From Shigella phage ChubbyThor: DNA of 64,000 nucleotides. Position numbers and translations under genes: made by a program. The notes under the pieces were generated by a model that searched no databases, was not told the DNA's origin, and saw only the letters and a program-made list of their open reading frames with translations. The stretch is taken from the sequence record OL615013; one strand, given 5' to 3'. This document shows, one piece after another, positions 6,935 through 57,900 of the stretch; position 1 is the stretch's first letter; each line of letters opens with the position of its first letter.

Positions 6935-7515
6935 AATTTATACACACCATCGTCGGCACTTCCTATGATTGCACCGCACACGAGCCAAACCGCTCGCCCG
7001 TGTTTGTTCTGAACAAACTGGGTGAAGAGATCTGTGAACTGTCTGATGTGTTTCATGGTATCGGCACAGCGTCCGAACCGTTGAATGGTGAAGTTGCTGA
7101 CGTCATTATCTCTGCCATTGACCTCCTGTATGTTATGGATTTCAATGACCAACAACTGCATGGTTGCATGACCAAAGAAGAGTTGGTCGACTCGGTTCAG
7201 ACACGTTTGGGGTTGTGTGGTGATTGTTCTCCCGAATATCTTGAAGCAGATTGGTTCCGCATTATCGATCGTGAACCCCAGAAGCATCTGAACCTCATTC
7301 ACCATTACCATGGCCGGATCATCCGATTATGCAATCAGCCTTATCGTAGCCAAGACATTCTAGAGAGGCTCGTTGCTAATTTGATCAAACATGTCGCACG
7401 GATGGCTTGCGGTGAAGGTGCCTTGCACAGCGTGAATATGTTGAGTACCCACATCAAAGTAGAGCACGCCATTGAACACAAAGTTGAAAAGTGGCGCATT
7501 AAATTTGGCCTATGA
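6931..7515 (+). CDS. Putative MazG-like nucleotide pyrophosphohydrolase
   Basis: AAGGAA SD; ATGA overlap with upstream gene; LGEEICELSDV...GEVADVIISAIDLL resembles the MazG EExxE/ExxD motif pair. Weak. Confidence 0.35.
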   Translation: MKFIHTIVGTSYDCTAHEPNRSPVFVLNKLGEEICELSDVFHGIGTASEPLNGEVADVIISAIDLLYVMDFNDQQLHGCMTKEELVDSVQTRLGLCGDCSPEYLEADWFRIIDREPQKHLNLIHHYHGRIIRLCNQPYRSQDILERLVANLIKHVARMACGEGALHSVNMLSTHIKVEHAIEHKVEKWRIKFGL

Positions 7516-8342
7516 AATACAAAATAATTTTGGATGCTCTTATACAGAGAGCAAAACTTCGAGGTAGAATGGAAGGCGTTTATCAAGAACGCCACCACAT
7601 AATCCCTGTGTGTTTGGGTGGAACCAACCATTTTTCCAACCTTGTGTGGCTCACGCCAGAAGAACATTATGTTGTTCATCACCTGCTTTGGAGGATAACC
7701 CCGCTTAACCCCGGAGTGAGGAAAGCTTGGACTGGGATGAACAACATGTCTAGGAGCAACAAAGAATTTGGGGAATTCAGGAGAAATAATTCCACCAGAA
7801 TGAAAGAAGTGATGTCATCTGATGAACAAAAGGAACGTTGTCGTAAGCAATCCAAGAAAAACTCATTGAACCCAGAAGTGCAGAAGAAACGTGCGGGTAG
7901 CTTGAGAGGTTACACTTGGGATGACGAATCAAGGCGCAGGTTGTCAAAATCCAGGAAAGGGATACCACACTCCGAAGCACACAAAGCCAACCTTACCAAA
8001 TCAGTCACCGAACGGATGAGGCGACCAGAAGAAAGGGAGAGGTATTCTGCTATGTGGCGCCAGAACAATCCCATGAATAACATACAACCTTGGGAACACC
8101 CGACTGTCGTAAAGACGGGTAAATCCCGACAATGGCTCCTGGCTGGTGAATTCTTTGAATGGTGGTGTGGTAACGGTGAAGACAAAGTGAAGAACCGTTA
8201 TTGTTTAATGTTGAAAGAAACCGGGTTAAGCTCTGTGTGTTCTAAGGCCACAGCTCAAACTTGTATATCTAAATTTCAGAAAGGTTGGATACCAAAAGAA
8301 GATCCCGCCTGGTTGAAATTTTACGGAGATAATAATGGTTGA
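7512..8342 (+). CDS. HNH homing endonuclease
   Basis: HHIIPVCLGGTNHFSNLVWLTPEEHYVVHHLL HNH motif; start and stop both overlap the neighbouring genes; paralogous to ORFs at 24926-25621 and 52872-53531. Confidence 0.75.
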   Translation: MKYKIILDALIQRAKLRGRMEGVYQERHHIIPVCLGGTNHFSNLVWLTPEEHYVVHHLLWRITPLNPGVRKAWTGMNNMSRSNKEFGEFRRNNSTRMKEVMSSDEQKERCRKQSKKNSLNPEVQKKRAGSLRGYTWDDESRRRLSKSRKGIPHSEAHKANLTKSVTERMRRPEERERYSAMWRQNNPMNNIQPWEHPTVVKTGKSRQWLLAGEFFEWWCGNGEDKVKNRYCLMLKETGLSSVCSKATAQTCISKFQKGWIPKEDPAWLKFYGDNNG

Positions 8343-10236
8343 TGTAAACAGAAAATACAAAAAGCTCTCACACATCGAGCATATACTCCTTCGCCCAGAG
8401 CGCCATCTGGGGAGTATCCGTTCTTCTGTCGGGTTGGCTTGGGTATATGATCTCAGCAAAGACAAAGTTGTATTTAAAGACAATTTTGAATATAACCCCG
8501 CTCTTATCAAACAGTTTGATGAAATCATCACCAACTGCGTTGACCACAGCAAGACGCCTGAGGGTAAATCCCTGACGGAAATCACTGTCACGGTTTCCCC
8601 GATGAACGGTCAAATCATCGTTGCTGACAACGGGGGCATCCCTGTGGTCAAGCATGAATCTGGTATGTGGTTGCCAGAAATGCTATTTTCGGAATTGTTT
8701 GCGGGATCAAACTTCAACGACGATGACGAAGAGTACAACAACCAGAAGTCTGGTGGCCAGAACGGTGAAGGGGCTTCGCTCGTCAACGTGTTCTCAAAGT
8801 GGTTCCGTGTTGCTACCAGTGACGGCAAGAAGTCTTATGCCCAGCTGTTTGAAGACAACATGAGCAAGAAGTCTAATCCGGTCATCAGCAATACGCCGAA
8901 AGAGTTCGGCACCACCATCGCCTGGATCCCTGACTATGCTCGCCTGGGCGTCAAAGGGCTTGACCAGAACAACCTGCTGATGATCTATCGCCGCGCGTTT
9001 GAAGTGGCTGCGTGTAACCCGCGCCTGAAGGTTGTGTTGAACGGGAAGCAAATCCGGATTGACCGCTTTGGTCACTTCGTTGATTACTTCCATGCTGGTT
9101 CCGCTGTTGATGAATCTGGTGAATGGTCGGTTGCTGTAGCCCCTTCATCCGGTACGTTCATGCACGCATCATACGTGAACTCTATTGCCACCCACATCGG
9201 TGGTCCTCACGTTGATTATGTCGCCGACCAGATCGTGGCTGCGATTCGTCCTCAGCTGGTGAAGAAGTTCAAGACCGAGCTGAAACCTGCCATGATCAAG
9301 AACCACATGTCCTTGTTCATTGCCGCCGACATCAACAACCCGCGCTTTGACAGCCAGACCAAGGAGCGCATGACCACTCCTGTAAGCCAGTTCGGTACGT
9401 CGTACAAGCCGAGTGACAAACTCATCCGCAAGGCGCTTGAGTTCGTTATGGCTGGTCTGAGCAAAGAACTGGCTTCCCTGCGCAATGAGCAGGATGATGC
9501 TGAGTTTGAAAAGGCCAAGAAGGATATCAGCAAGCGGGATTATCGTGAGATTGAGAAGTATTACCCGGCGACCGCCCGTGGTGACCGCAGTGGTTGCTCC
9601 CTGTTGCTGACAGAGGGTGATAGCGCCTCCAACCCTATCCTGAACGCCCGTGACACCAAGAAGATCGGATTGTTCCCGCTTCGTGGTAAGTTCATCAACT
9701 GCCTGAACGCCCCGCGCACAAAGGTGATGAACAATGAAGAGTTCAAGAACCTGTGTACGATTCACGGCGGCGCAGTGCCAGGCCAGCCCCTTGACATCAG
9801 CCGCTACCCACAGACTGTTGTGGCTACCGATGCGGACGATGACGGCATTCACATCCGTGGGTTGTTGATCACCCTGTATTGCACCTACTGGCCGGAGTAC
9901 GTCCGTCAGGGCAGGCTGAAGCTGCTGCGTACCCCTTACATGCGCGTGTGGTGTGGTAAGGTGATGCATGAGTTCATGAACAACGCCGAGTATGAGGAGT
10001 TCCTGAAGACACCTGATGCCAAGAAGATCACGAAGAAGAAATATCTGAAAGGTCTGGGCGGTAACAGCACTGAAGACTTCAAACGTATTCTAAACAACCT
10101 GGATGCGTATACTACGACGGTCACGCTGGACGATGGCTATCAACAGTCACTGAAGAATGGCTTCGGTGATGAGGCCGCCGATTACCGCAAAACCTGGTTT
10201 AGCGATGTTTGCCTGTTTGAAACTGAGGATGAATAA
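8335..10236 (+). CDS. DNA topoisomerase II large subunit (T4 gp39-type ATPase, fused gp60-like C-terminal part)
   Basis: GGAG SD; RFDSQTKERMTTP and LLLTEGDSA...FPLRGK blocks match recalled T4 gp39; GHKL ATPase N-terminus. Confidence 0.9.
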   Translation: MVDVNRKYKKLSHIEHILLRPERHLGSIRSSVGLAWVYDLSKDKVVFKDNFEYNPALIKQFDEIITNCVDHSKTPEGKSLTEITVTVSPMNGQIIVADNGGIPVVKHESGMWLPEMLFSELFAGSNFNDDDEEYNNQKSGGQNGEGASLVNVFSKWFRVATSDGKKSYAQLFEDNMSKKSNPVISNTPKEFGTTIAWIPDYARLGVKGLDQNNLLMIYRRAFEVAACNPRLKVVLNGKQIRIDRFGHFVDYFHAGSAVDESGEWSVAVAPSSGTFMHASYVNSIATHIGGPHVDYVADQIVAAIRPQLVKKFKTELKPAMIKNHMSLFIAADINNPRFDSQTKERMTTPVSQFGTSYKPSDKLIRKALEFVMAGLSKELASLRNEQDDAEFEKAKKDISKRDYREIEKYYPATARGDRSGCSLLLTEGDSASNPILNARDTKKIGLFPLRGKFINCLNAPRTKVMNNEEFKNLCTIHGGAVPGQPLDISRYPQTVVATDADDDGIHIRGLLITLYCTYWPEYVRQGRLKLLRTPYMRVWCGKVMHEFMNNAEYEEFLKTPDAKKITKKKYLKGLGGNSTEDFKRILNNLDAYTTTVTLDDGYQQSLKNGFGDEAADYRKTWFSDVCLFETEDE

Positions 10237-12901: not shown

Positions 12902-13140
12902 ACCAAGAATTTGAAAACCTGTTTGAGCGTTGCTTTGAGCCTGCGTCTGTTGCGGGTTACATGGACCGCCTCAGTAAAGAGATCATATCCCGTCTGGTGG
13001 CGAAGGGTATCCATGTTGGTACGCTCGTGCGCAACGGTGACAACTTCATCATACAGATGTCCGACTGTCGTCATCGTTCTGGCATCTTCTACGTTAAATG
13101 CATTGACAACAGCATTATTGAATGGAGACAGTACGCATGA
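12898..13140 (+). CDS. Hypothetical protein
   Basis: Small ORF translationally coupled on both sides. Confidence 0.4.
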   Translation: MNQEFENLFERCFEPASVAGYMDRLSKEIISRLVAKGIHVGTLVRNGDNFIIQMSDCRHRSGIFYVKCIDNSIIEWRQYA

Positions 13141-13736
13141 CCACATATGTAATCCATGGTGGCGATCTACTGAAAGCCGCCTGCAGCTTTAATCTGATCG
13201 ACATCTTTGCCCATGGTGCCAACTGCTGGTCTACCATGGGCGCGGGTATTGCCCTGCACATCGGCAACAACTTCCCAGCCCTACGCGAAGTCGATGCGAA
13301 CGATCCTCGTGGTCCAGAGCAACGCCTGGGTGGCATGACCTATGCATTCGACCACAGCAAGGGCGTTTGGGGCGCGAACCTCTACACTCAGTTCTACCCA
13401 GGTCCGAATGCCCGCATGCCGTCTGTCATCAGTTCTGTTCAGACCCTGTTTGAGCAGGTTCACGAAATTGTGGAAGCAACGGATGAAGAAACCGTCTATG
13501 TCGGCCTGCCTGCTATCGGCTGTGGTATCGGCGGCCTGAATCTCTACAGCGTAGTACGCCATATTAACCGGATCGCTGAAAGCGTGTATGAAGAGACCCG
13601 CCGTCGTGTCGTCCCAGTCTTCTATATCAGGGAAGGAGACGGGTTCGATGATGATCTGATGGAACTTTCTCATCTGGACGCAGAAGGTATCATGATTGTC
13701 GAAGATGAGCAAGAAATCATCGACGAGGAGGCGTAA
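13137..13736 (+). CDS. Macro-domain protein (ADP-ribose binding / processing)
   Basis: GDLL...IFAHGANC and LPAIGCGIGGL resemble the macro-domain glycine-rich ADP-ribose loops; start at ATG 13137 overlapping upstream stop. Confidence 0.5.
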   Translation: MTTYVIHGGDLLKAACSFNLIDIFAHGANCWSTMGAGIALHIGNNFPALREVDANDPRGPEQRLGGMTYAFDHSKGVWGANLYTQFYPGPNARMPSVISSVQTLFEQVHEIVEATDEETVYVGLPAIGCGIGGLNLYSVVRHINRIAESVYEETRRRVVPVFYIREGDGFDDDLMELSHLDAEGIMIVEDEQEIIDEEA

Positions 13737-14369
13737 ATGTACAAGTCTAACTTCTTGGCAGTGGCCGACAGCGAGACTCTGGGGCGCTGGGATGATGCAG
13801 TTGTGTTGTCCTGGGCGCATACCATTGCCGACCTGACCAAGCGTTATACTCTTCAGCAGCTGGTTGAGGAGCGCACGACGTTCATTAAGCTGAATGTCAA
13901 AGAGCAGATCGAACTCGGTCGCGTGAAGGACCAGGGGACGGTAGAATGGTGGTTGGGGACGGGTAAACGTAACCCGTGTGATGCGGCTCGCGCCGTCAGT
14001 CTGTACCCGACTGAGCAGGACGTCTCTATCTTCCAGCTGGCCGATGAAATCCGCAAGGGTTGTCATCGTCTTGGGGTAGACCCGCGCTCGGTTGACTGGT
14101 GTGACCGTAACTTGTTCGATCTGCGCAAGGCTCAACACATCATTGAGGTGACGTGCAAGCAGGACTCCAACGAGCCTTGGGACTACCACCACACCTTCGA
14201 CATCGTGAGCTGGCTGAAGGGTGTCGGGCAACAAGATCGCTACGCTGGCATCAAGGCGTGGGAACTGGAAGGCATGGTCTATCATGATCCTCGTTATGAC
14301 GCCGCGCTTGATTGGCTTCGCATTCAAAAGACTATGGAAGACCTGATGGGTCTGGAGGTGGTAGGATGA
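13737..14369 (+). CDS. dexA: Exonuclease A (DexA-like, DEDD 3'-5' exonuclease)
   Basis: FLAVADSETLG (DxE exo motif) and KLNVKEQIELGRVKDQGTVEWW resemble recalled T4 DexA (IIDFETMG...FDLKSQKGHRLFTKSTIEWW). Confidence 0.6.
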   Translation: MYKSNFLAVADSETLGRWDDAVVLSWAHTIADLTKRYTLQQLVEERTTFIKLNVKEQIELGRVKDQGTVEWWLGTGKRNPCDAARAVSLYPTEQDVSIFQLADEIRKGCHRLGVDPRSVDWCDRNLFDLRKAQHIIEVTCKQDSNEPWDYHHTFDIVSWLKGVGQQDRYAGIKAWELEGMVYHDPRYDAALDWLRIQKTMEDLMGLEVVG

Positions 14370-14671
14370 GCGCATTCTTCGAATTCGTCGGCGTCATAAC
14401 AGTGACGGTATTCCTCGTCGTTGTACTTGGTGTGATCTATTCCCTGTTTGTCCACCCAGTGTTCCAGGCCGTCAGTATCATGCGTTGGATCACAGCTTGC
14501 TCCTTGTCGGTGGGTAACAAGCCGCCGACCCTGAAAGAGAGATGGAGTTTCTTCAAATGGGGATATGAAATCGGTGGTCCCAGAACAACCCGCTACTCTA
14601 ACAACACCGGAGAATGGTGTGGGATAGGCCGATGGCAAGTATTCAAATCTGAAGAAGATGAAGCCCCGTGA
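14366..14671 (+). CDS. Small membrane protein
   Basis: ATGA overlap start; single strong hydrophobic helix VGVITVTVFLVVVLGVIYSLF. Confidence 0.4.
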   Translation: MSAFFEFVGVITVTVFLVVVLGVIYSLFVHPVFQAVSIMRWITACSLSVGNKPPTLKERWSFFKWGYEIGGPRTTRYSNNTGEWCGIGRWQVFKSEEDEAP

Positions 14672-14684
14672 GGGGCTTTTCTAT
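14662..14684 (+). terminator. Rho-independent terminator
   Basis: GCCCC-GTGA-GGGGC hairpin (contains the stop codon) followed by TTTTCTAT. Confidence 0.6.
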
Positions 14685-14713
14685 ATCCGGGATAGAGTAT
14701 CATTGTTTCACCA

Positions 14714-14947
14714 ATGAATCCTCGGGAAACTGCTATGACTACAGCAAGAAGTTACAGAAAGAACTTCAACATCGAAGGGATTGAGTTCTACCACCATTAC
14801 GCCCAGGACACCCATGGCACTGTATGCAACACATACATGCTTGACGGTCGCCCTGTAGGTTCCGATGAGTTCTATCGTGTTTTGCGCGAGTCTACAGAAG
14901 AATCCCTGTCTTACATTATCAATGCCAACGGATTGATTAAACCATGA
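14714..14947 (+). CDS. Hypothetical protein
   Basis: Small ORF, ATGA-coupled to the next gene. Confidence 0.35.
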   Translation: MNPRETAMTTARSYRKNFNIEGIEFYHHYAQDTHGTVCNTYMLDGRPVGSDEFYRVLRESTEESLSYIINANGLIKP

Positions 14948-15630
14948 TCAACGTATCAATAAACGACCGAGATTTCGTCCACGCTGTTATGACAAACAAC
15001 AAAGACCCTCTTGCGTACAACGGGGAGAAGGTTACTCTGTTCTGGTCAGGCGGCGTGGACAGCACGTACATGCTATTCTGGCTGTTGGCTCACGGGTACG
15101 AAGTTCACACGATCTACTGCGAACTGGAGAACAACTCCTTCAAGGTGAAGCGTGAGAACTGGTCGCGCAAGAAGATCAGGGAATGGGTGACCACAAATTC
15201 GCCGAGGTTGAACACTCATTGGCATCACAGAGAAACCCCGATCAGCAAAATGAGCATCCAGTCTGGTGAGTTCCGGCCTTGTCTGGCTCAAGCCCCTGTG
15301 TGGTTGGTGAACACCCAATTCGCGGGTGGCCATTTTGATCGAGGACTGCCAAGAACTTATGTGATGGCATACGTCAACGGAGACGACGCTCTACACTGGA
15401 TCCCTGCCTTCAACAAGATCGTGGAGGGTTATAACATGTTGGCCAAAGACGGGCATGAGATCACCGTTCTCTTCCCTCTCGCCAGCATGAAGAAGACATG
15501 GTTCTACGAAGCCTTGTCGCCAATCTACGGGCTGATGACCTGGTGTGAATATCTCGTTCTGAAAAAGAACTGTGAATGCCCCGCTTGTGTCCGCCACCGT
15601 CATGAACTTTCCGTGTTTGAGGGGAAATAA
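14944..15630 (+). CDS. PP-loop ATP pyrophosphatase (QueC-like; NadE-like not excluded)
   Basis: SGGVDS PP-loop motif (LFWSGGVDSTYML) near N-terminus; C-terminal Cys cluster C-x9-CxCxxC. Confidence 0.5.
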   Translation: MINVSINDRDFVHAVMTNNKDPLAYNGEKVTLFWSGGVDSTYMLFWLLAHGYEVHTIYCELENNSFKVKRENWSRKKIREWVTTNSPRLNTHWHHRETPISKMSIQSGEFRPCLAQAPVWLVNTQFAGGHFDRGLPRTYVMAYVNGDDALHWIPAFNKIVEGYNMLAKDGHEITVLFPLASMKKTWFYEALSPIYGLMTWCEYLVLKKNCECPACVRHRHELSVFEGK

Positions 15631-15971
15631 TGAAACCGTCTGTTGTGGTGAACGACATCACCAGATTGATAAACCTTGTCAAAGATGTGTTCCCACAACA
15701 GGTGGATGTCGAGTATGTTGGGAAGAACGGGAAGTGCTATCAGGTTGCTCTGTTGTTGAAGCACGTGTACCCTCAAGCAGAGATCCATTACAGTCAGATT
15801 GAAGGCCACGTGTACACTCTGATTGATGGGAATTATTACGACATCGACGGCATCCACTTCAGTGTGCCACCGGACACGTGTTTGCTCGAACACAACAGAG
15901 GCCACAAACCACATCGCTGGCATAAAGGATTTGTGAACGTACCGATTTTAGAATGGTTGAGGAGACCATAA
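15630..15971 (+). CDS. Hypothetical protein
   Basis: TAATG-coupled ORF between PP-loop ATPase and phosphoesterase. Confidence 0.4.
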
Positions 15972-16531
15972 TGGCAGGAATTGTGAAGTATCTGGGCGAC
16001 ACCCACCTTGGGCACAAGAAGATCTTCAAGCCCCGTGGGTTCGACACACAGGAAGCCCACGACGCTGCGGTCATTGACAGTATCTATCAGGGACTGAAGT
16101 CCCGAGACGTCCTTGAACTTGCAGGCGACATCTGCTTCATCGGGGCTGAGGGGTTCATTCGCCTGATGCGCGAGGGTGCCAAGCGGAACATTGATGAGTT
16201 CAAGCGCCGCCCAGTTCCCGATGACTGGCGTCCGAACTTTATCATCAGGGTGGCGCAAGGCAACCATGACAGCTTCAAGATGTTGATGCAGCTGTATCAA
16301 GAGGGATGGATTAGCTCCTTCGGTGCGATGTATGAGCGTGACACTCCGGTTGGTCGTGTGCTGACCACTCACGTTCCTTATCAATTAGACCGCTGGGCGT
16401 ATAATATCCATGGTCATCTTCACGGCGAAATGCGTGAAGAACGCGAATACCTGAACTGCAGCTGGGAACAATTCAAGCGCCCTGTGACATTGGCCGAGCT
16501 GCTCTATACCAATCTGGGGATTGAAATATGA
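15971..16531 (+). CDS. Calcineurin-like metallophosphoesterase
   Basis: GDTHLG, GNHD and HGHLH metal-ligand motifs in canonical order; GGAG SD before ATG 15971. Confidence 0.55.
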
Positions 16532-16845
16532 AAATTTATTTTCCTGGTCAGAAAGTGCCTTCTGAAGTGGAGAAGGTGGAGTTCACGGGTTATCGGGGAG
16601 GAGATCCCAACTTGCGTTTCTCCTCTCCTTGTATCGTGAAAAGAACAGAAACGGGCTATTACGTCAGACCAATCGTATTGATGGGCAGCGTGATGACATT
16701 AAGAGCAACCGCCGACCATGTTTCTATACAAGGCAGCCCAGAGATTACATGTGGGATAACCCACATGAACTGCAAGCCGATTATCCCGACATGGTTGATT
16801 ATTGGTGTGCTTTCTGTTTTGGCTCTGAAAGGGGTATTGTTATGA
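16528..16845 (+). CDS. Hypothetical protein with C-terminal hydrophobic anchor
   Basis: ATGA-coupled ORF. Confidence 0.35.
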
Positions 16846-17180
16846 AAAAGCCGCGCATCACAGGACACCAACTCTCGGTTCTCTACGGGATAGAGAACTT
16901 TGAGAAAGGTCATCGCCGTTATGGTGAACGGTACTTGCATCCCAAATCCTGGGCCAATGACAAGGGCAACACCGTCTGGACGTTCCAGGTATGCCCGAAC
17001 GCTGGTGGTTTCACCTCCGTCAAAGGCGATCCATGGGACACCCGCACAGGGGCTTCCCTGCTCGCCAAGGGGTTGATCGAACCAGCTGGCTCAATGGTTC
17101 ATGACGGTTCGTACGTGAACTGGCCGAACACTGAGGTGACGTTCTACCGCCTGACTGAACTCGGTAAGTCTTATCTCTGA
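16842..17180 (+). CDS. Hypothetical protein
   Basis: ORF-track start at 16629 rejected (211-nt overlap); ATG 16842 overlaps upstream stop. Confidence 0.4.
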   Translation: MKKPRITGHQLSVLYGIENFEKGHRRYGERYLHPKSWANDKGNTVWTFQVCPNAGGFTSVKGDPWDTRTGASLLAKGLIEPAGSMVHDGSYVNWPNTEVTFYRLTELGKSYL

Positions 17181-17204
17181 ATAAAGATTCAGCGGTTATT
17201 GAAG

Positions 17205-17236
17205 AAGGGGGAGTATATACTTCCCCTTAGTTTATT
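17205..17236 (+). terminator. Putative terminator (long near-palindromic hairpin)
   Basis: AAGGGG(G)AGTATA / TATACTTCCCCTT near-perfect palindrome followed by AGTTTATT. Confidence 0.5.
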
Positions 17237-17250
17237 AAGAGGAACCGGAA

Positions 17251-17592
17251 ATGACCCCATTAAAAGAAATGTATGAGCGCCTGGCTGAACTGCAGGCGAA
17301 GGAAAAGCGCTTCTCGGAAGAAGAGACAGAGCTGTCCGAGCTGAACACTTTGATCGCCACTCGCGAGAAGTACCTCCAGCGCTACATCAACCATCCTCCC
17401 CACATGGTGGAGCGTGTGTCTGAAGCGATCATGCCGTTTGCTGGGCGTGAGTTTAATGAGCAAACTCGTGAAGAGATACTCAAAGTCATCGTAGCAGAAG
17501 TCCATTCCATGGTCTCCCTCGGCCAGATCTTTGGCCGCGCAGACCAGGAGGACATGATCTTCCTTCTGAACAAGAATGTGGTGGTGAAATAA
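17251..17592 (+). CDS. Hypothetical protein (predicted helical)
   Basis: GAGGAA SD 6 nt upstream. Confidence 0.45.
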   Translation: MTPLKEMYERLAELQAKEKRFSEEETELSELNTLIATREKYLQRYINHPPHMVERVSEAIMPFAGREFNEQTREEILKVIVAEVHSMVSLGQIFGRADQEDMIFLLNKNVVVK

Positions 17593-18095
17593 TGTCCATC
17601 AAGCCCCGTATGATGTTTGCGCACATGCGCTCGGCTCATGCATATGCACTGTCCAGCTATGCTCGGCGCCTGAAGGTCGGCTGTGTTATCGTTGACCCAA
17701 ATATTGACCAACCTGTTGCCATCGGCTGGAACGGGACTGCTCCTGGTGCTCCTAACGTCTGTGAGCAAGAAGTGGACGGTCAGTTGGTAAGCCTCGAAAG
17801 TGTTGTCCATGCTGAAGAGAATGCCCTGGACAATATACGAAAGGCTCACACCGGGCTTGTAATGTTCGTAACACACAGCCCCTGTCCGAGATGCACGAAG
17901 AAGATAATCGAAAGCGGTAATATCGACCAGATCTTTTACAATGTGCCATATCGAATCACAGACGGCATCGTTGAGATGATGAACGCTGGCATTGAAGTCT
18001 ATCGCATGGTCGACCAGTACGCCGTCGTCAAACATTGCTTTGATACCGAAGGCAAATTAACATCCACCCCTGTTTTAGTGAACCCTGACAAGTAA
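17592..18095 (+). CDS. cd: dCMP deaminase
   Basis: Zinc-binding deaminase motifs HAEENAL and SPCPRCTKKI (HxE...PCxxC); TAATG coupling. Confidence 0.75.
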   Translation: MSIKPRMMFAHMRSAHAYALSSYARRLKVGCVIVDPNIDQPVAIGWNGTAPGAPNVCEQEVDGQLVSLESVVHAEENALDNIRKAHTGLVMFVTHSPCPRCTKKIIESGNIDQIFYNVPYRITDGIVEMMNAGIEVYRMVDQYAVVKHCFDTEGKLTSTPVLVNPDK

Positions 18096-18105
18096 GGAAT
18101 TTATC

Positions 18106-18513
18106 ATGCGTTATGTAGATCGTATGCTCGGCAAAGACGAGCACGTTATTGCCTTCACTCGCCCGACCTGGTGGAGCGGCTTCTGGATGTATGTGTTGGT
18201 TGTGCTTCTGTTTGTGCCAACCTTCGGCGTCAGTCTGTTGTTCCTGATCCCGACTGTACTGAACGTCCTGACCACTGAATTCGCTGTGACCAACAAGCGT
18301 GTCATCGTCAAACGTGGTTTCATCCGTCGTGATGCTGATGAGTTGCGCATCGGCAAGGTGGAAACAGTGAAGGTCGACCAGTCTATCACAGGCCGCATCC
18401 TGGGCTTCTCTACCATCAGTGTCATCGGTACGGGCGGCACTCGCCTGCTGGCCACGGGTTGTGCTGGCGGCAATGCGTTCCGTCAGAAGATCTACGACCA
18501 GCTGGACGATTGA
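18106..18513 (+). CDS. Membrane protein with bacterial PH-like domain
   Basis: AAGGAA SD; two N-terminal TM helices then a soluble domain, resembling the DUF304/bPH_2 architecture. Confidence 0.45.
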   Translation: MRYVDRMLGKDEHVIAFTRPTWWSGFWMYVLVVLLFVPTFGVSLLFLIPTVLNVLTTEFAVTNKRVIVKRGFIRRDADELRIGKVETVKVDQSITGRILGFSTISVIGTGGTRLLATGCAGGNAFRQKIYDQLDD

Positions 18514-24267: not shown

Positions 24268-24933
24268 TCAGATTCCGTGGGCTTGTATTAGCTCACGGAG
24301 TCTCTGTTTTGAATATGTTGTATCCTCATCCGGCACCACAGCATTCGTCTTCCTGAGCAGGAAAGCCTCAGAGTTCCAGTAGATGTCCTCCCGCAGCTGG
24401 GTGTCATACAGGTGGATGAACCCCACTATCTTGTTCAGACCAACCAGGAACCACATCGGGAACCGCTTGGTGATGATGTCTGTCAGCAGCGCCGGGTGCC
24501 CCTGGCCTGTACCCTTCACATAATCAATGAACGATAGGTTGCGCTCTTTGATGGCCGGGATCATCTCCCTCTCGAACTCCTCAAGGAAGTTGTATGTGAA
24601 GTTGTCGTACAGCTTGCGATATTCATCATAATTCGATTGCGCCTGGCGGGTAAGCAATGTTGTCACCCAGGTCTTCGGTGATTTGATGAAGTTGGCGATG
24701 ATGTAGTTCTCTACCACTTCACCCTGGGATGTTTCGAACCGACGAGCCAGGCGAGCAAACTGTTTGCACACGGCTTCCTTCGCCAAGAAGGTTTCGAACT
24801 TGTAGTTCATCGGTCCATACAAACTGTAGTCGAAGTCCTTGGTGGTGAAGTGCAACTTAATCGCCATGAAGACACAATACACGTTGAACGCCCGTTCAAA
24901 CTGCATTTTTTCCCAATCGGTATACTCACGCAT
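24268..24933 (-). CDS. Putative helicase loader (T4 gp59-like)
   Basis: FNVYCVFMAIKLHFTTKDFDY resembles recalled T4 gp59 YKLYLMIKQHMNGKYDV; AGGAAA SD. Weak. Confidence 0.35.
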   Translation of the reverse strand: MREYTDWEKMQFERAFNVYCVFMAIKLHFTTKDFDYSLYGPMNYKFETFLAKEAVCKQFARLARRFETSQGEVVENYIIANFIKSPKTWVTTLLTRQAQSNYDEYRKLYDNFTYNFLEEFEREMIPAIKERNLSFIDYVKGTGQGHPALLTDIITKRFPMWFLVGLNKIVGFIHLYDTQLREDIYWNSEAFLLRKTNAVVPDEDTTYSKQRLRELIQAHGI

Positions 24934-25621
24934 TTTTCATTTCCTCGAAAAACTTAACCCAATTCTCATCATTGTACGGCACCCATCCTTTTTGAAATCT
25001 TTGTATGCAACTTTTGGCGGTCATTTCGGCGCGATCTACCCCCAATTCCTTGGCCATCGTTACATTTCGACATATGCCCAACCTGGCACCATCGGCTACC
25101 CACCAATCATAGAATACTCCTGCCAAAGCCCAATATTTGCGGGTATGCTTCGCATTTGGACTCTCCCAAGGCTTTGAATGGATTTGTTTTAATTTGGAAC
25201 GTTGTGAATCTGATTTGGGTCTGTCCATCAGCGAATCGGAAATTTTCGATCTGTGTTCGCGGGATAACGCCACCCCCTTGAATCTTTCACTGCATTTTCG
25301 TTTAAACTCTGGAGTGCTGTTGGCTGCCTTCATCCTTTCCCATTTTCTGAGAGCAAACTCTTCATATTGGCGTGAAGTTTGTGATTTTGATCTATTTCTC
25401 ATCAAAGAAAAGATTTTCACGTATGCAGGGGACATACTGAATATCTTGGCCAAAAGTTTGTGAACTATGAAATGCTCCCGAGCAGTTAGAACAGCAATAT
25501 TCTCCGCAGTATCACTCCCTCCCAAGCTCCTGGGTTCTCTATGGTGTCTTTCTGAATACCCAATCAGATTGCGAGAATAAGACCTTTCAAGGATAGAAAA
25601 CAACGCTCGGGTGTAGTTCAT
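24926..25621 (-). CDS. HNH homing endonuclease paralog (degenerate HNH motif)
   Basis: ERHHREPRSLGGSDTAENIAVLTAREHFIVHKLL; C-terminal FQKGWVPYNDENWVKF module shared with the other two HNH genes. Confidence 0.6.
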   Translation of the reverse strand: MNYTRALFSILERSYSRNLIGYSERHHREPRSLGGSDTAENIAVLTAREHFIVHKLLAKIFSMSPAYVKIFSLMRNRSKSQTSRQYEEFALRKWERMKAANSTPEFKRKCSERFKGVALSREHRSKISDSLMDRPKSDSQRSKLKQIHSKPWESPNAKHTRKYWALAGVFYDWWVADGARLGICRNVTMAKELGVDRAEMTAKSCIQRFQKGWVPYNDENWVKFFEEMKNA

Positions 25622-33917: not shown

Positions 33918-34444
33918 TTCACTTCCTCTTTATTGTTGATCGTCGTTAATAATTCTACACCCATAACCTTCTGGGACAAAATGTTAATCGCCTCTTGGAT
34001 GCTCTTCAGAGACATCATCTCAACAGGCGACGGTGCATCATTATGTCGGTCGGTTAGGTACATATTGCGCAGATTGTTGTAGTTCGTGCGGTTGATGCAC
34101 GCAGCGTTCAGCGCAATATTCAGGATATACATCATCTGTTCAATGGTTACATCCTTCGGCATGGCGTGGATGTAATAGATCGAGCCTTCGAAGTAGACGT
34201 CCAGCAGTTCATCTGGTATCTCGACGCCACCACTGGCATACTCTTCGATCATCCTGAACAGAGACTCTGGTTGCTCGCTGGCGATCTTATGCGTGACAGT
34301 CGCCGAAAGACCATCACCCAGTTTAACAGGCCTGGTGTATTCAGTGATGAATACATTATGACCGCCGCCGATGATGTGCTCGGCGAAATTAGCGGATGCG
34401 TTCGCCGCGTTGTCTGCATGATATGAAACGACGACTGTAAACAT
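33902..34444 (-). CDS. Hypothetical protein
   Basis: ORF coupled to gp56-like gene; no recognised motif. Confidence 0.4.
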   Translation of the reverse strand: MFTVVVSYHADNAANASANFAEHIIGGGHNVFITEYTRPVKLGDGLSATVTHKIASEQPESLFRMIEEYASGGVEIPDELLDVYFEGSIYYIHAMPKDVTIEQMMYILNIALNAACINRTNYNNLRNMYLTDRHNDAPSPVEMMSLKSIQEAINILSQKVMGVELLTTINNKEEVKWPVH

Positions 34445-34998
34445 TAGAACTCCAGGGTCAGAGGGGTTTCTGCGGACTTGTCGTAATCCGCGCCGCCAGC
34501 AGCACGCAGACGATTGCGATCGTTCTTGCGCTTGTGTGCCAGCATGTAAGTCTCAATATCGATCTCCATGTAAGAACACGCAGCCGACAGGAAGAACATG
34601 AGGGTCTCGACACAAGGTTCGTTCATGAACTGCCCAAGGCGATACGTCACACCGCGATGCCCAACAGCACCCAAAGCAGATGGGGTGAATTCGCGACCAC
34701 CGAGGATTTCGAATTCTTCTTCGATCTCGCCTTTGGTGCGGTCCATAAGGATGAAGCACAGCATGAAGTGTACCACGTCCACCAGTTCATAGACTGCGTT
34801 CGCATGGTCAAACCCGATGTCGTTGCCATAGACCTTCCAGTCGCGGCTGGTTTCGTCAAGGAACTCTGCCCATTCACGATAGATGGAGTTGATGACTGCG
34901 TTCTGACTCCATACATTCTTCCACTCTTCCCCAAAGTAGGCCACGTTGGTGGCCTTTTGGAGTTCGAGCAGGCTTTTGATATGCCCTGCTGTGATCAT
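34444..34998 (-). CDS. dNTP pyrophosphatase (T4 gp56 dCTPase-like, all-alpha MazG/dUTPase_2 family)
   Basis: ELVDVVHFMLCFILM matches T4 gp56 ELVDIFHFVLNMFVG; size 184 aa. Confidence 0.55.
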   Translation of the reverse strand: MITAGHIKSLLELQKATNVAYFGEEWKNVWSQNAVINSIYREWAEFLDETSRDWKVYGNDIGFDHANAVYELVDVVHFMLCFILMDRTKGEIEEEFEILGGREFTPSALGAVGHRGVTYRLGQFMNEPCVETLMFFLSAACSYMEIDIETYMLAHKRKNDRNRLRAAGGADYDKSAETPLTLEF

Positions 34999-35564
34999 TT
35001 ACGTTCTCCGTAGAATTTAACGAACGGTGCCCAACCATCAAATGGATTGAGGAATTCGTAGTCCACTTTCATCTCGTCAATGAAAGCCTCTATATCGTCC
35101 TCTATGATACCAGCGCGGTCGGCCTTTGAAATGCGGGTGATAGGACATTTCGTACTCAGCGCCCATTCATATTCCTGAGGGGTGCGCAGATCGCTCACGA
35201 TATAATGTACATGAGGGTTCTGCTCCACCAAAGGAAGCTGGAAGCGCTTGAAGAATGCCAGGAACAGATCGGGCTGCACGTAACGCAAGCCCGTATCGCT
35301 GCCGAGATGGAGCCAGATCTGCCTTGGGGTTAAGCCCTTGGGGTTATCAGGGTGGACGTAAGGAACGTCCTTCACGGCATCCTCTACCTCCGCTGGCAGC
35401 CACGGGTAGATGTAATTGGCAACCCGGCGCAGTTCGTCTGAGAACGAAAGGCGCTGGATATCCATATCACCCTGTAGATGGTGATAGCTGATGAGGGACT
35501 CCAAACAGAAGTCCTTACCGGAGCGCTTGCGCCCCGTAAAGAATTCAAGGTTCGGGTACATCAT
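34995..35564 (-). CDS. Deoxynucleoside monophosphate kinase (T4 gp1-like)
   Basis: FFTGRKRSGKDF matches T4 gp1 FLSGVKRSGKDT P-loop. Confidence 0.75.
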   Translation of the reverse strand: MMYPNLEFFTGRKRSGKDFCLESLISYHHLQGDMDIQRLSFSDELRRVANYIYPWLPAEVEDAVKDVPYVHPDNPKGLTPRQIWLHLGSDTGLRYVQPDLFLAFFKRFQLPLVEQNPHVHYIVSDLRTPQEYEWALSTKCPITRISKADRAGIIEDDIEAFIDEMKVDYEFLNPFDGWAPFVKFYGERK

Positions 35565-36610
35565 ACCACACCTTCCAGGAACTTAGGATCAACGATCTTG
35601 CGGTCAACTGGAGAATGGGTGAGCGCAATGTTCAAACCATGATCCTGAATCCGGTTCATGTTGATGAGCTTATCGTTCAGTTTGCAGTACAGGCAGTATG
35701 CCATTTGCATGATCAAGCCACGATCAGCATCATATTCCTTCAGGTGGGCGACCACAGTTTCCCACGGGCTACCGATATCACAGTGATGAAGCACACCAGT
35801 GAACAGATTGCGGATATGGTTCTGGTTGGTCACGTTCTTGAAGTGAATCATGGAGTTGATGAACCCAGCTTCTACTTTGGTGTCCTTCGTGATCTTGCCC
35901 AGCTGCTTCTGGCTGACTTCATTGTTATAGTAATGAAGATTGTTAGAGAAGAGCTTGTACTGGCCGACATCAACATCCAGCACCTGAGCAATCACTTCCT
36001 GAAGAATAGAGAACTCAATGAAGTTGATTGAACTCATACCCCACAGAACATCCTGTGAGCGGTTGATGACCGTCAGGTTCAGACGACCTTCAACGATGGC
36101 GAACAACAGAGCCAGGTTACACACCATGTCTTTAGTCTTCGCTTCGCCGCTCTCGCTGAACTTCGCCAGACCAGCATCTGAATCTAGAGCCGGATCATAG
36201 ATGGTGAGGTACGCCTGACGGGTGTTTGGGTTCTTGCGCAGACGGTTGATGACGCTATCCAGCTGGCCATGGGCGTACAGACGCGGACCATAAGCGGCTC
36301 GCCATGTGTGGCCGTTGTCGGAAAAGTTGGCGGCGCGGGGCAACACGCGGGACAGGAAGCGAACGTCATCGCGCCCGGACAGAACCCAGAAGGTCTCGCC
36401 GATGGCAGCGATAGCCGATGAGTTACGGCCTTCAACGGAAAGCCAGCGGTCACGGATGTCACTGACGGTGATAGTCACACCATCAAGGAATCGGGTGCCG
36501 TCCGTGTTGATCTCCGCATTACCAGGATCAGATTCAATTCCGTATTCGCGGATAGCCAAGACAGCCTGCTTCAGCATGTCATTGTTGTTAATTGCTTTGA
36601 TTTCCATCAA
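35561..36610 (-). CDS. Thymidylate-synthase-family enzyme, probable pyrimidine hydroxymethylase (T4 gp42-like)
   Basis: VCNLALLFAIVEGRLNLTVINRSQDVLWGMSSINFIEFSILQEVIA aligns to E. coli ThyA [42 protein letters not shown], but PCH is VCN; sits in the T4 gene 42 position. Confidence 0.6.
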   Translation of the reverse strand: MMEIKAINNNDMLKQAVLAIREYGIESDPGNAEINTDGTRFLDGVTITVSDIRDRWLSVEGRNSSAIAAIGETFWVLSGRDDVRFLSRVLPRAANFSDNGHTWRAAYGPRLYAHGQLDSVINRLRKNPNTRQAYLTIYDPALDSDAGLAKFSESGEAKTKDMVCNLALLFAIVEGRLNLTVINRSQDVLWGMSSINFIEFSILQEVIAQVLDVDVGQYKLFSNNLHYYNNEVSQKQLGKITKDTKVEAGFINSMIHFKNVTNQNHIRNLFTGVLHHCDIGSPWETVVAHLKEYDADRGLIMQMAYCLYCKLNDKLINMNRIQDHGLNIALTHSPVDRKIVDPKFLEGVV

Positions 36611-52871: not shown

Positions 52872-53531
52872 TTATTGACTTACAAACTCTAACCACTCTG
52901 GGTCGGCTTTGGGATTCCACCCAGATTTAAATTTATTAATCATTGTGAAATGCGGAGTCGTCTTGTTTTTGAACCCAAACGCTTTCGCCATGAACGTGCA
53001 ACCTTTTTGGTTGCACAACCACCAATCATAATATTCGTCGGCGCGTTTCCATATATCCAAAGACTCTTTGGTGGCATGGTTACTTTCCCAAGGTTGTTTT
53101 ATCACGCAGATATTGTTTTCCTTCAAACGTTTAGACTGTATTTCCCGCAAATGAGGATACTTTACATGTGTCTGTTTCATTTGATCGGAACGAATTTTCC
53201 TCAAATTAGGGTTGTCTTTGTACATCTGTTTATTGGAATGAGAAAGTTTTCTCCGCAACCAACCGAATAATTTGTTACAAGATCTACCGGAGAATTCATT
53301 GTTTACGCACATAGCATTAGCTGCAAATGCTAATTTGAAATTTTTGGGATATATTTTGACTAACAATTGATGTGCCAAATAATGTTCTTCTGGTGTCAAC
53401 TCCACCAGATTATGTTTGTCATCTTTCCCTCCCATACATCTAGGGATAATATGGTGGGTTTCAGAATAACCAACCAATGAACGGGTCTTGGCTCTTTGTA
53501 TCAGAGAGTCATAGATATTTTGATAATTCAT
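52872..53531 (-). CDS. HNH homing endonuclease
   Basis: THHIIPRCMGGKDDKHNLVELTPEEHYLAHQLL; C-terminal KFKSGWNPKADPEWLEF module; inserted between phoH and nrdA. Confidence 0.7.
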   Translation of the reverse strand: MNYQNIYDSLIQRAKTRSLVGYSETHHIIPRCMGGKDDKHNLVELTPEEHYLAHQLLVKIYPKNFKLAFAANAMCVNNEFSGRSCNKLFGWLRRKLSHSNKQMYKDNPNLRKIRSDQMKQTHVKYPHLREIQSKRLKENNICVIKQPWESNHATKESLDIWKRADEYYDWWLCNQKGCTFMAKAFGFKNKTTPHFTMINKFKSGWNPKADPEWLEFVSQ

Positions 53532-56845: not shown

Positions 56846-57900
56846 TTCACTTTCCTCAGTTCAGCGAATTGTAATGAAGCGGCCATACCCTGGTAGACGT
56901 TCTTGGCGATCAGCTTCAGGAGGTCTTGTATCGGCATGTTGCCCTTTGATGGCATGACCATGTCGTTGATATCCTTCCACGGAACGTCCGGTGGGAACAG
57001 CACGACCTTGACACCTTTATCTATCATCTTCTGAATACCATCACAGACCTGCGGGTTCCGGTACTGGTTGTCAGGGATATAGATGTCGCCCTTCACGCTC
57101 AACAAGTCGGCATCTGCTGACGCCATACAATTCGGCAGGAAGAGGCTATCAATCGGACCTTCCACCACCAGCTTGGTCTTGTGAATGTTCACCCGGTCTT
57201 CCCCATAGACTTTGGTGTCCTCGTCCTTGGGCTTGACTGTCGCGTATCGCAGGGTCGCGTTCTTGTCGAATGCACGCCCCTGAACGACCTTCATCCGCCC
57301 GTCTTGCGTCCAGAATGGAATCACCAGCCGTTCGTCATCAGGGATCTTCAGTTGCTTTTCGGGGTCTGTTTCAAACAGCTTCAGGTCTTCACGAAAGCGC
57401 TGTGTGTAGTACAGTAAGGACCAAGTGCTCTCCGGCAGCCCTCGCCACTGTACGTACTGTCGAGCCTTATGGTCAGGCGGTAGTAGATCAAGCCGGAGCA
57501 TATTGCCGAGGAGGCTTTCGTCGCGTTTTGCCGCCACTGAGCCAATACGGGCGGTCTGTGTCAGCTTTGGCAACGGCTTCAGGGAAGGAAGTGGTCTGCC
57601 TGACGTATCACCCAGCAGGCGGAACTTCTCCATGTTGTACTCTGTTGAGAGGCGTTCGTCGAACTTCTTCAGCCAGAACTCAAATGACCAGCCATTCATC
57701 TGGTTGCAGTTGTGGCACTTGAACCGGAAGCAGTCATGATCCCGATCATAGAAGAAGTATCCACGGCGCTTGTTAGCAGACTTCGTGGAGTCACCACACA
57801 GGGGACAACGGAAGTTTGCGACAGTACCAACGCGCTCCCACTTGAACTTGTCAAGGCGGGGCGACACGTTGTTGATAAATTGCTCGTCAAGAAATTTCAT
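56842..57900 (-). CDS. DNA primase (T4 gp61-like)
   Basis: Zinc finger FRCPLCGDS / T4 FRCPVCGDS and VEGPIDSLF / T4 LEGPIDSLF; start set at ATG 57900 to match T4 N-terminal length. Confidence 0.85.
   Translation of the reverse strand: MKFLDEQFINNVSPRLDKFKWERVGTVANFRCPLCGDSTKSANKRRGYFFYDRDHDCFRFKCHNCNQMNGWSFEFWLKKFDERLSTEYNMEKFRLLGDTSGRPLPSLKPLPKLTQTARIGSVAAKRDESLLGNMLRLDLLPPDHKARQYVQWRGLPESTWSLLYYTQRFREDLKLFETDPEKQLKIPDDERLVIPFWTQDGRMKVVQGRAFDKNATLRYATVKPKDEDTKVYGEDRVNIHKTKLVVEGPIDSLFLPNCMASADADLLSVKGDIYIPDNQYRNPQVCDGIQKMIDKGVKVVLFPPDVPWKDINDMVMPSKGNMPIQDLLKLIAKNVYQGMAASLQFAELRKVK

Follow-up and report, generated by a model that had tools for sequence, protein, structure and literature searches.

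A 64,000-nucleotide stretch of the genome of Shigella phage ChubbyThor (OL615013; the whole stretch is referred to here as the window) carries, at positions 14944–15630 on the + strand, an open reading frame (ORF) for a 228-amino acid (aa) PP-loop protein that we regard, on balance, as a divergent QueC-superfamily enzyme working on a substrate other than that of QueC. Judged by its sequence, the protein looks like an active ATP pyrophosphatase from a large and essentially phage-restricted branch of this superfamily, and it retains the ATP/pyrophosphate-binding loop, E71, K184 and a structural zinc ribbon. Because the chemistry is uniform across characterised PP-loop enzymes, it would be expected to adenylate a carboxylate or ring-carbonyl oxygen of a small substrate, probably one that is nucleobase- or nucleotide-like and is not handled as QueC handles its own, after which ammonia or an amine would react with the adenylate. 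The gene appears to act alone as an accessory of the phage DNA-replication and nucleotide-metabolism module, and was probably ancestral in the Ackermannviridae and lost in some lineages.

An earlier note made from the letters alone had described an ORF with an SGGVDS PP-loop and a C-terminal cysteine cluster, followed two genes downstream by a metallophosphoesterase with GDTHLG, GNHD and HGHLH motifs. The ORF and its loop (aa 35–40; 15046–15063, + strand; invariant across the PP-loop family) are confirmed, as is the phosphoesterase, which is complete. The cysteine cluster (15544–15588, + strand) is likewise present, although its first spacing is x8 and not x9: it reads C201-x8-C210-x-C212-xx-C215, a QueC-type zinc ribbon that aligns to QueC C186/C195/C198/C201. 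Neither gene is a chance ORF; both are real and conserved because their homologues are widespread (195 phage records for the PP-loop protein by tblastn, 739 for the phosphoesterase) and their motif residues are invariant among close homologues. While a word-indexed protein search returned close relatives of the PP-loop protein only (at least 53% identity), exhaustive HMMER searching with a profile of close homologues made the wider family visible, comprising 1148 clusters at 50% identity at E ≤ 1e-3 and 474 at E ≤ 1e-10. These are mostly proteins of ~200 aa with the match spanning residues ~28–220; the longer members (300–435 aa) carry no recognisable fused extra Pfam domain. One viral contig (L055) holds two tandem, overlapping divergent QueC-like copies (7163–7879 and 7876–8499).

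The family signature, taken from an alignment of 40 diverse members, has the consensus WSGGlDST ... NN..K..RE ... Q.P.W ... GYVmNDDAIS ... FPL.K.KK ... TWCE ... CGxCxPC. Residues W34, G37, D39, S40, E71, Y143, D147, A149, K184, C201, C212 and C215 are invariant in this alignment and N63, N64, Q116, D148, E202 and C210 nearly so. At the positions that correspond to the substrate sites of QueC and Cap9, the family shows a signature of its own (NN63-64, K67..RE71, Q116, Y143-x3-DDA, FPLxxxKK and WCE). The four zinc-ribbon cysteines are the only ones found family-wide, C59 being confined to the Ackermannviridae clade, in which the ribbon is one residue shorter (C-x-C-xx-C) than the CGxCxxC of the wider family.

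Classification required family profiles, because with one sequence as the query the matches in the PDB, NCBIfam and Pfam were confined to the N-terminal ~50 aa. Within that limit, Pfam QueC was the sole Pfam family above its cut-off (28.1 bits versus 22, over the N-terminal 50 aa), while tRNA_Me_trans (18.0 bits, below 20.6) and ThiI (16.0 bits, below 20.5) fell short; among PHROGs, the protein matched phrog_1550, 'QueC-like', at E 3.6e-73. The family profile aligned end to end with Bacillus subtilis QueC (3BL5, E 3.6e-9) and Cap9 (9NTO, E 8.9e-8) in the PDB, followed by TtuA at 7e-4, with NAD-synthase-domain and TilS proteins at E > 0.01. Aligned by hhalign to a Bacillaceae QueC alignment, the family gave a probability of 96% over 181 columns. 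A further comparison gave figures of 11.8 for QueC, 11.4 for YcfA, 11.0 for ThiI, ~10.3 for NcsA and TtuA, 9.6 for TilS and at most 9.0 for NadE. In Foldseek, the top 15 PDB matches were all TtuA (E ~1e-5, TM-scores 0.43–0.49), and the TM-scores to Cap9 and QueC, at 0.52–0.53, were higher. Pfam NAD_synthase did not match the window protein and matched only 1 of the 40 family members (E 0.004). By these profiles the protein belongs to the QueC superfamily and is not NadE-like, and among the families QueC, NadE, TilS and MnmA only QueC exceeded its Pfam cut-off, the others giving no or sub-threshold matches. Membership of NadE (NAD synthetase) was rejected on both profile and closest fold. TilS, MnmA, ThiI and TtuA were rejected as well, with profiles below cut-off, no extra domains in the 228 aa and only zinc-ribbon cysteines conserved family-wide. 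The iron–sulfur (Fe-S) cluster raised by the TtuA matches was also rejected, given that C59 is clade-specific and the four family-wide cysteines match the QueC zinc site.

The suggestion of the earlier note that the protein is most like QueC thus holds at the level of the superfamily (Pfam QueC above cut-off; 3BL5 by family profile) and not for canonical QueC. The sequence argues firmly against the latter because the score on the QueC equivalog model TIGR00364 is 18.8 bits, the cut-off being 150.3, and because four essential positions are replaced. Mutagenesis of Escherichia coli QueC has shown Y35, R99, Y131 and Y189 to be essential (PMC13329287); by hhalign, the corresponding Tyr/Arg/Tyr/Tyr positions are occupied by L61, Q116, I153 and E202, whereas E71, K184 and the four cysteines do correspond to QueC residues. 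Moreover, tblastn with the Gat-QueC of phage 9g detected a second, canonical QueC on two contigs of uncultured phages, L018 (522–1319, with the divergent family member at ~8001–8678) and L028 (1428–2231), together with a module of single-stranded DNA-binding protein (SSB), UvsX and flap endonuclease (FEN). The L018 QueC scores 172 bits on Pfam QueC and lies ~7 kb from the divergent protein; the presence of both on one contig argues that the two are not redundant.

Pathway partners of QueC are likewise missing. Enterobacter phage EspM4VN encodes a PP-loop protein with 97% identity to that of the window, and the annotation of its complete genome lists no folE, queD, queE or dpdA/tgt. The DpdA, FolE, QueD and QueE of phage 9g, used as tblastn queries, matched neither the window nor the EspM4VN genome, nor any of 40 distant-family loci. 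The EspM4VN genome encodes tRNA-Ser, tRNA-Tyr and tRNA-Asn (record 56911–57672). Tyr and Asn tRNAs are queuosine-modified classes, and their occurrence alongside a QueC-like gene in EspM4VN is a curious coincidence; the window itself contains no tRNA gene. Ackermannviridae have been reported to replace thymidine with 5-(2-aminoethoxy)methyl-2′-deoxyuridine (5-NeOmdU; 10.64898/2026.05.19.726188). In the window, a 348-aa thymidylate-synthase homologue (35561–36607), a deoxynucleoside monophosphate kinase (34995–35564) and a MazG-type nucleoside triphosphate pyrophosphohydrolase (34444–34998) stand in a row on the − strand, an arrangement that fits the 5-hydroxymethyl-deoxyuridine-based thymidine hypermodification reported for the family. 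In Salmonella phage SFP10 and Escherichia phage ECML-4, Hutinet et al. in 2019 noted 'QueC singletons' and put them aside, considering that they probably belong to another N-type ATP-pyrophosphatase subfamily (PMC6884629). These singletons are members of the same family as the window gene: they are orthologues with 60–63% identity and occupy the equivalent place in Kuttervirus genomes. Our literature search on a characterised function for the Ackermannviridae PP-loop gene found nothing beyond that study.

The 195 phage records with the gene come almost exclusively from Ackermannviridae, including Kuttervirus, Taipeivirus, some Agtrevirus and Serratia, Erwinia and Vibrio phages. Its absence is confirmed in phage Ag3 and apparent, from partial coverage and host lists, in MK-13, SKML-39 and Dickeya phages. 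Jumbo phages of Pseudomonas, Ralstonia and Burkholderia carry more distant members, as do many uncultured large phage contigs. Scans for near-identical peptide patterns returned 58 loci in IMG/VR versus 6 in 185,579 bacterial and archaeal genomes, the latter mostly fragments of metagenome-assembled genomes (MAGs; five are short MAG contigs), and the family is therefore essentially phage-restricted. The sole member on a long, chromosome-level bacterial record (OW818669.1, 4.2 Mb; locus L069, 7962–8648) comes from a metagenome assembly and is flanked by a 1087-aa WD40-repeat protein on one side and two insertion sequence-type integrase genes on the other, an uninformative context. Among viral loci, the neighbours vary by lineage and are repeatedly genes of replication, recombination or nucleotide metabolism, including DnaB, UvsX/RecA, gp32-like SSB, FEN, SbcC-like, Nudix-like, dCMP or dCTP deaminase and an unannotated AAA ATPase. 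Their identities derive mostly from Pfam or record annotation and some, such as DNA polymerase B, from reading the sequence. Conserved-neighbour analysis across 58 viral loci detected no recurrent partner gene. On contigs L020–L024 (for example, L023 7204–9237), an AAA+ ATPase gene directly downstream of distant family members is interrupted by an apparent LAGLIDADG-type intein (motif ...LAGLIDTDG...).

The phosphoesterase gene (15971–16531, + strand; 186 aa; ORF open from 15953) is predicted to encode an independent and intact binuclear-metal phosphoesterase, a small stand-alone protein of the aq_1665/phage T5 family. Its most likely start is the ATG at 15971 and not 15953, because this ATG forms a TAATG with the stop codon before it and because the corresponding Met is where nearly all homologues, most of them 185–190 aa long, begin. 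In the numbering of the longer ORF (15953–16531), it carries GDTHLG (aa 15–20), GD (58–59), GNHD (103–106) and HGHLH (153–157), with metal-ligand motifs that are invariant in its homologues. ORF 15971–16531 thus shows the DxH, GD, GNH[DE], H and GHxH elements and the fold of the calcineurin-like superfamily. It scored below the thresholds of Pfam Metallophos, gave only a weak PdeM match in NCBIfam (E 0.0011) and matched PHROG 547, 'phosphoesterase', at E 4e-44. The 739 records with homologues include T5-like phages, with the annotation 'putative Ser/Thr phosphatase'. The protein resembles Aquifex aq_1665 (PDB 1XM7) and the T5 homologue, from which it differs by a lineage-specific insert at aa ~64–95; fold matches beyond aq_1665 call for caution, as the structure model is moderate (pLDDT 75, residues 134–156 poor). 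An Mre11/SbcD fragment, judged by a nuclease with a capping domain, a Rad50/SbcC partner and the closest fold, was considered and rejected, since relatives have separate gp46/gp47 genes. The outcome under which the earlier note would have been set aside, a housekeeping tRNA-modification ATPase beside such a fragment, was thus found for neither gene.

Ag3 keeps the phosphoesterase and the YunG-like gene that separates it from the PP-loop gene, and lacks the PP-loop gene; EspM4VN keeps the PP-loop and YunG-like genes and lacks the phosphoesterase. Because each phage retains one gene without the other, the two are independently gained and lost and are not functionally coupled. T5-like phages lack the PP-loop family altogether, and more than 500 T5-like and other records have the phosphoesterase alone. 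Within the window, the phosphoesterase is probably co-transcribed with the PP-loop gene string, as it belongs to a tightly packed series of genes with overlapping stop and start codons.

Upstream lies a macro-domain protein (13122–13736, + strand), called 'Tk.4' in the annotation of relatives, with matches to DarG antitoxin models in NCBIfam (E 1.8e-8) and PADLOC (E 1.7e-7). It may be an anti-DarT DNA ADP-ribosyl glycohydrolase; the DarG-like match suggests a role in reversing the ADP-ribosylation of DNA and not in NAD metabolism. It is followed directly by a DexA-like exonuclease gene (PHROG 255; 13737–14369, + strand). In EspM4VN, an adjacent pair annotated as ribose-phosphate pyrophosphokinase and nicotinamide phosphoribosyltransferase (record 112754–115269) resembles the two-gene phage NAD-reconstitution pathway. 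This Prs-like/Nampt-like pair lies ~100 kb away in relatives, and nothing ties it to the PP-loop gene.

Several points count against a non-QueC substrate. The description 'nucleobase-like' comes solely from fold neighbours and gene context. In the HMMER alignment, D147 may be the equivalent of the deazaguanine-contacting D117 of Cap9, and the aromatic W152 lies one position off an essential Tyr of QueC; owing to these two positions, the protein could possibly hold a remodelled pocket for 7-carboxy-7-deazaguanine (CDG). The QueC alignment used for hhalign is shallow, comprising only Bacillaceae sequences at least 73% identical, and two hidden Markov model alignments (Cap9 and QueC) place the NDDA motif differently. 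In addition, the annotation-based absence of queD, queE, folE and dpdA could miss very divergent analogues, and CDG is in any case supplied by the host. Were the protein a true QueC (a preQ0/7-amido-7-deazaguanine synthase) acting on host CDG, it could feed an unrecognised DNA 7-deazaguanine or queuosine in GUN-anticodon tRNAs of the phage. That it is homologous to QueC and keeps the PP-loop, E71, K184 and zinc ribbon agrees with this, as do the 'QueC-like' name of PHROG 1550, the EspM4VN tRNA-Tyr and tRNA-Asn of the queuosine family and the fact that enterobacterial hosts make CDG. However, the host already has a QueC, L018 holds a real QueC plus a divergent member, the TIGR00364 score is far below its cut-off and neither the window nor the EspM4VN genome has dpdA/tgt, folE, queD or queE. 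All four residues essential in E. coli QueC are replaced (PMC13329287), thymidine is the site of the sole hypermodification reported for Ackermannviridae (10.64898/2026.05.19.726188) and the same doubt was voiced in 2019 (PMC6884629), making a true QueC quite unlikely. The same evidence speaks against the proposal in the earlier note of 7-deazaguanine DNA modification with partner genes outside the window.

A modifier resembling TtuA, TtcA, TilS or ThiI, which would adenylate a base carbonyl in tRNA, DNA or a nucleotide for thiolation or amination, is unlikely too. The top Foldseek matches, the alignment of the family G-Y-V-M-N-D-D-A with the TtuA G-H-N-L-D-D-E-A and the location in nucleotide- and DNA-metabolism modules are in its favour, yet the core of only ~190 aa has no THUMP, PUA or TilS C-terminal domain and no conserved Fe-S triad, its TM-scores to TtuA are below those to Cap9 and QueC, the TtuA profile match is far weaker than that of QueC and no tRNA gene lies in the window. 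The patchy distribution of an accessory phage gene is typical of counter-defence genes, which would suit an enzyme that ligates a carboxylated base to a protein amine in the manner of Cap9 or QatC, or that consumes or diverts CDG and so keeps immunity dependent on deazaguanylation, as in type IV cyclic oligonucleotide-based anti-phage signalling system (CBASS) and QatABCD defences, from being armed. With Cap9, the PP-loop protein shares the ~190-aa core, the 'CE' after the first zinc Cys and the PF/L-x4-K motif (PMC13329287), and PADLOC gives a weak match of its CBASS 'QueC' model (24.6 bits, partial, for the PP-loop protein; 37 bits over the full length for P0027). Nevertheless, the CDG-binding motifs Y/FxQ, RN and YxDC are not conserved, no candidate substrate protein is conserved next to the gene, the recurrent context is replication machinery and not known anti-defence loci, and the literature searched offers no experimental hint, which leaves this reading a slim chance. 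The other module envisaged in the earlier note, in which a NadE-like NAD synthetase, the phosphoesterase and the macro domain would jointly serve NAD/ADP-ribose metabolism against NAD-depleting defences, is scarcely credible and largely refuted. It draws on the placement of the three genes within 3.5 kb on one strand and on the Prs-like/Nampt-like pair elsewhere in relatives, which indicates that NAD metabolism does matter to these phages; against it stand the lack of a Pfam NAD_synthase match in the window protein (one weak match among the 40 members), the independent presence and absence of the genes and the DarG-like macro domain, with its suggested role in DNA ADP-ribosylation reversal. 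NadE is not known to have a zinc ribbon. The ribbon is instead a feature of the QueC family (PMC13329287). We therefore retain, on balance, the divergent QueC-superfamily enzyme with a non-QueC substrate.

Shigella phage vB_SboS_Gloob (Agtrevirus) is 95.5% identical by megablast across the full 13000–18200 interval, and other Agtrevirus phages (family Ackermannviridae) are 87–94% identical over it. Every gene from ~11.9 to 18.7 kb is on the + strand, with stop/start overlaps of ATGA at 14944 and TAATG at 15630 and 15971. The first of these joins the PP-loop gene to a small upstream ORF (14714–14947, + strand; 77 aa; PHROG 16682) that accompanies it in Gloob and is missing along with it in Ag3. 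This ORF was rejected as a substrate or partner of the PP-loop protein, as other genera have a different small ORF or none at that place. Between the PP-loop and phosphoesterase genes lies the YunG-like protein gene (15630–15971, + strand; PF24591, E 1.3e-43), which is kept in relatives without the PP-loop gene, and on the other flank of the phosphoesterase is a DUF7618 protein gene (16528–16845, + strand; PF24594, E 1.6e-53). Both are conserved and linked to their neighbours through overlapping stop and start codons. Elsewhere in the window, three ORFs (7512–8342, + strand; 24926–25621 and 52872–53531, − strand) bear HNH-like 'HH..P....GG' signatures that suggest homing endonucleases scattered among replication genes; one directly precedes the topoisomerase II large-subunit gene.

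The PP-loop gene and the phosphoesterase both belong to families that were annotated already, and the PP-loop family was known as PHROG 1550 and flagged as an oddity in 2019 (PMC6884629). New in this study are its breadth, signature, structural neighbours, coexistence with true QueC, phage restriction and context. A phage QueC-like clade with its own active-site signature and more than 1000 clusters at 50% identity constitutes a defined biochemical target; it spans the Ackermannviridae, with Kuttervirus phages used in therapy and biocontrol among them, and many jumbo phages. The identity of its substrate would reveal either a new way in which phage DNA metabolism transforms a nucleotide or nucleobase, or a counter-defence of a new kind. 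That the clade performs new ATP-dependent nucleobase chemistry, whether a CDG-diverting counter-defence or the amidation or amination of a DNA precursor in the replication module, is a very doubtful proposition at present. The label 'QueC-like queuosine biosynthesis' that the family currently bears in databases should not be taken to show that these phages modify their DNA with 7-deazaguanine. In itself, an orphan enzyme family is not surprising; it becomes more topical given the recent discoveries that QueC-family enzymes are by no means limited to producing preQ0, among them Cap9 and QatC, which attach deazaguanine to proteins and thereby arm anti-phage immunity.

Compared with known systems, the protein has in common with QueC a Rossmann-like PP-loop fold, the SGGxDS element, the conserved Glu that follows strand 2, a conserved Lys, the zinc ribbon and a length of ~220 aa, to which it adds a 27-aa N-terminal helix. 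The canonical QueC signature comprises SGGxDS, YxQxHxxE, VPxRN, YPDC, a conserved Lys and C-x8-CxxCxxC (Libby et al. 2026, PMC13329287). Of YxQxHxxE, only the Glu (E71) is retained, with the Tyr replaced by L61, the Gln and His not conserved and the family NN..K..RE in that place. The Arg of VPxRN becomes the near-invariant Q116, with a clade-specific R111 five residues upstream, YPDC becomes I153-P154-A155-F156, and the Tyr after the first zinc Cys becomes E202. The zinc motif C-x8-C-xx-C-xx-C is present, with a one-residue spacing variant in the Ackermannviridae. Unlike QueC, the divergent family has no queD, queE or folE neighbours and is phage-restricted. In Cap9, a type IV CBASS deazaguanylase (9NTO), the nucleobase is contacted by R86, Y115 and D117 (10.1101/2025.04.06.647259); the first two are not conserved in the PP-loop protein, whereas D117 may be equivalent to D147, so that the only counterparts to the Cap9 motifs Y/FxQ(x)5E, RN and H(x)4YxDC are E71 and possibly D147. 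The PP-loop protein has no QatC-type extensions, and none of the operon partners of Cap9 or QatC (a cGAS/DncV-like nucleotidyltransferase with Cap10, or QatA/B/D) stands beside its gene; Cap9 sits in defence islands, whereas the PP-loop family is phage-encoded. With TtuA, the family shares a G-[HY]-x-x-[ND]-D-[DE]-A element after strand 4 (G-Y-V-M-N-D-D-A against G-H-N-L-D-D-E-A). Unlike TtuA, TtcA and TilS, it lacks an Fe-S triad, an RNA-binding domain and an N-terminal zinc-finger domain, and it bears a C-terminal zinc ribbon of the QueC type, a QueC-family feature that is common to Cap9 and QatC and was lost in the LarE and GMP-synthase clusters (PMC13329287).

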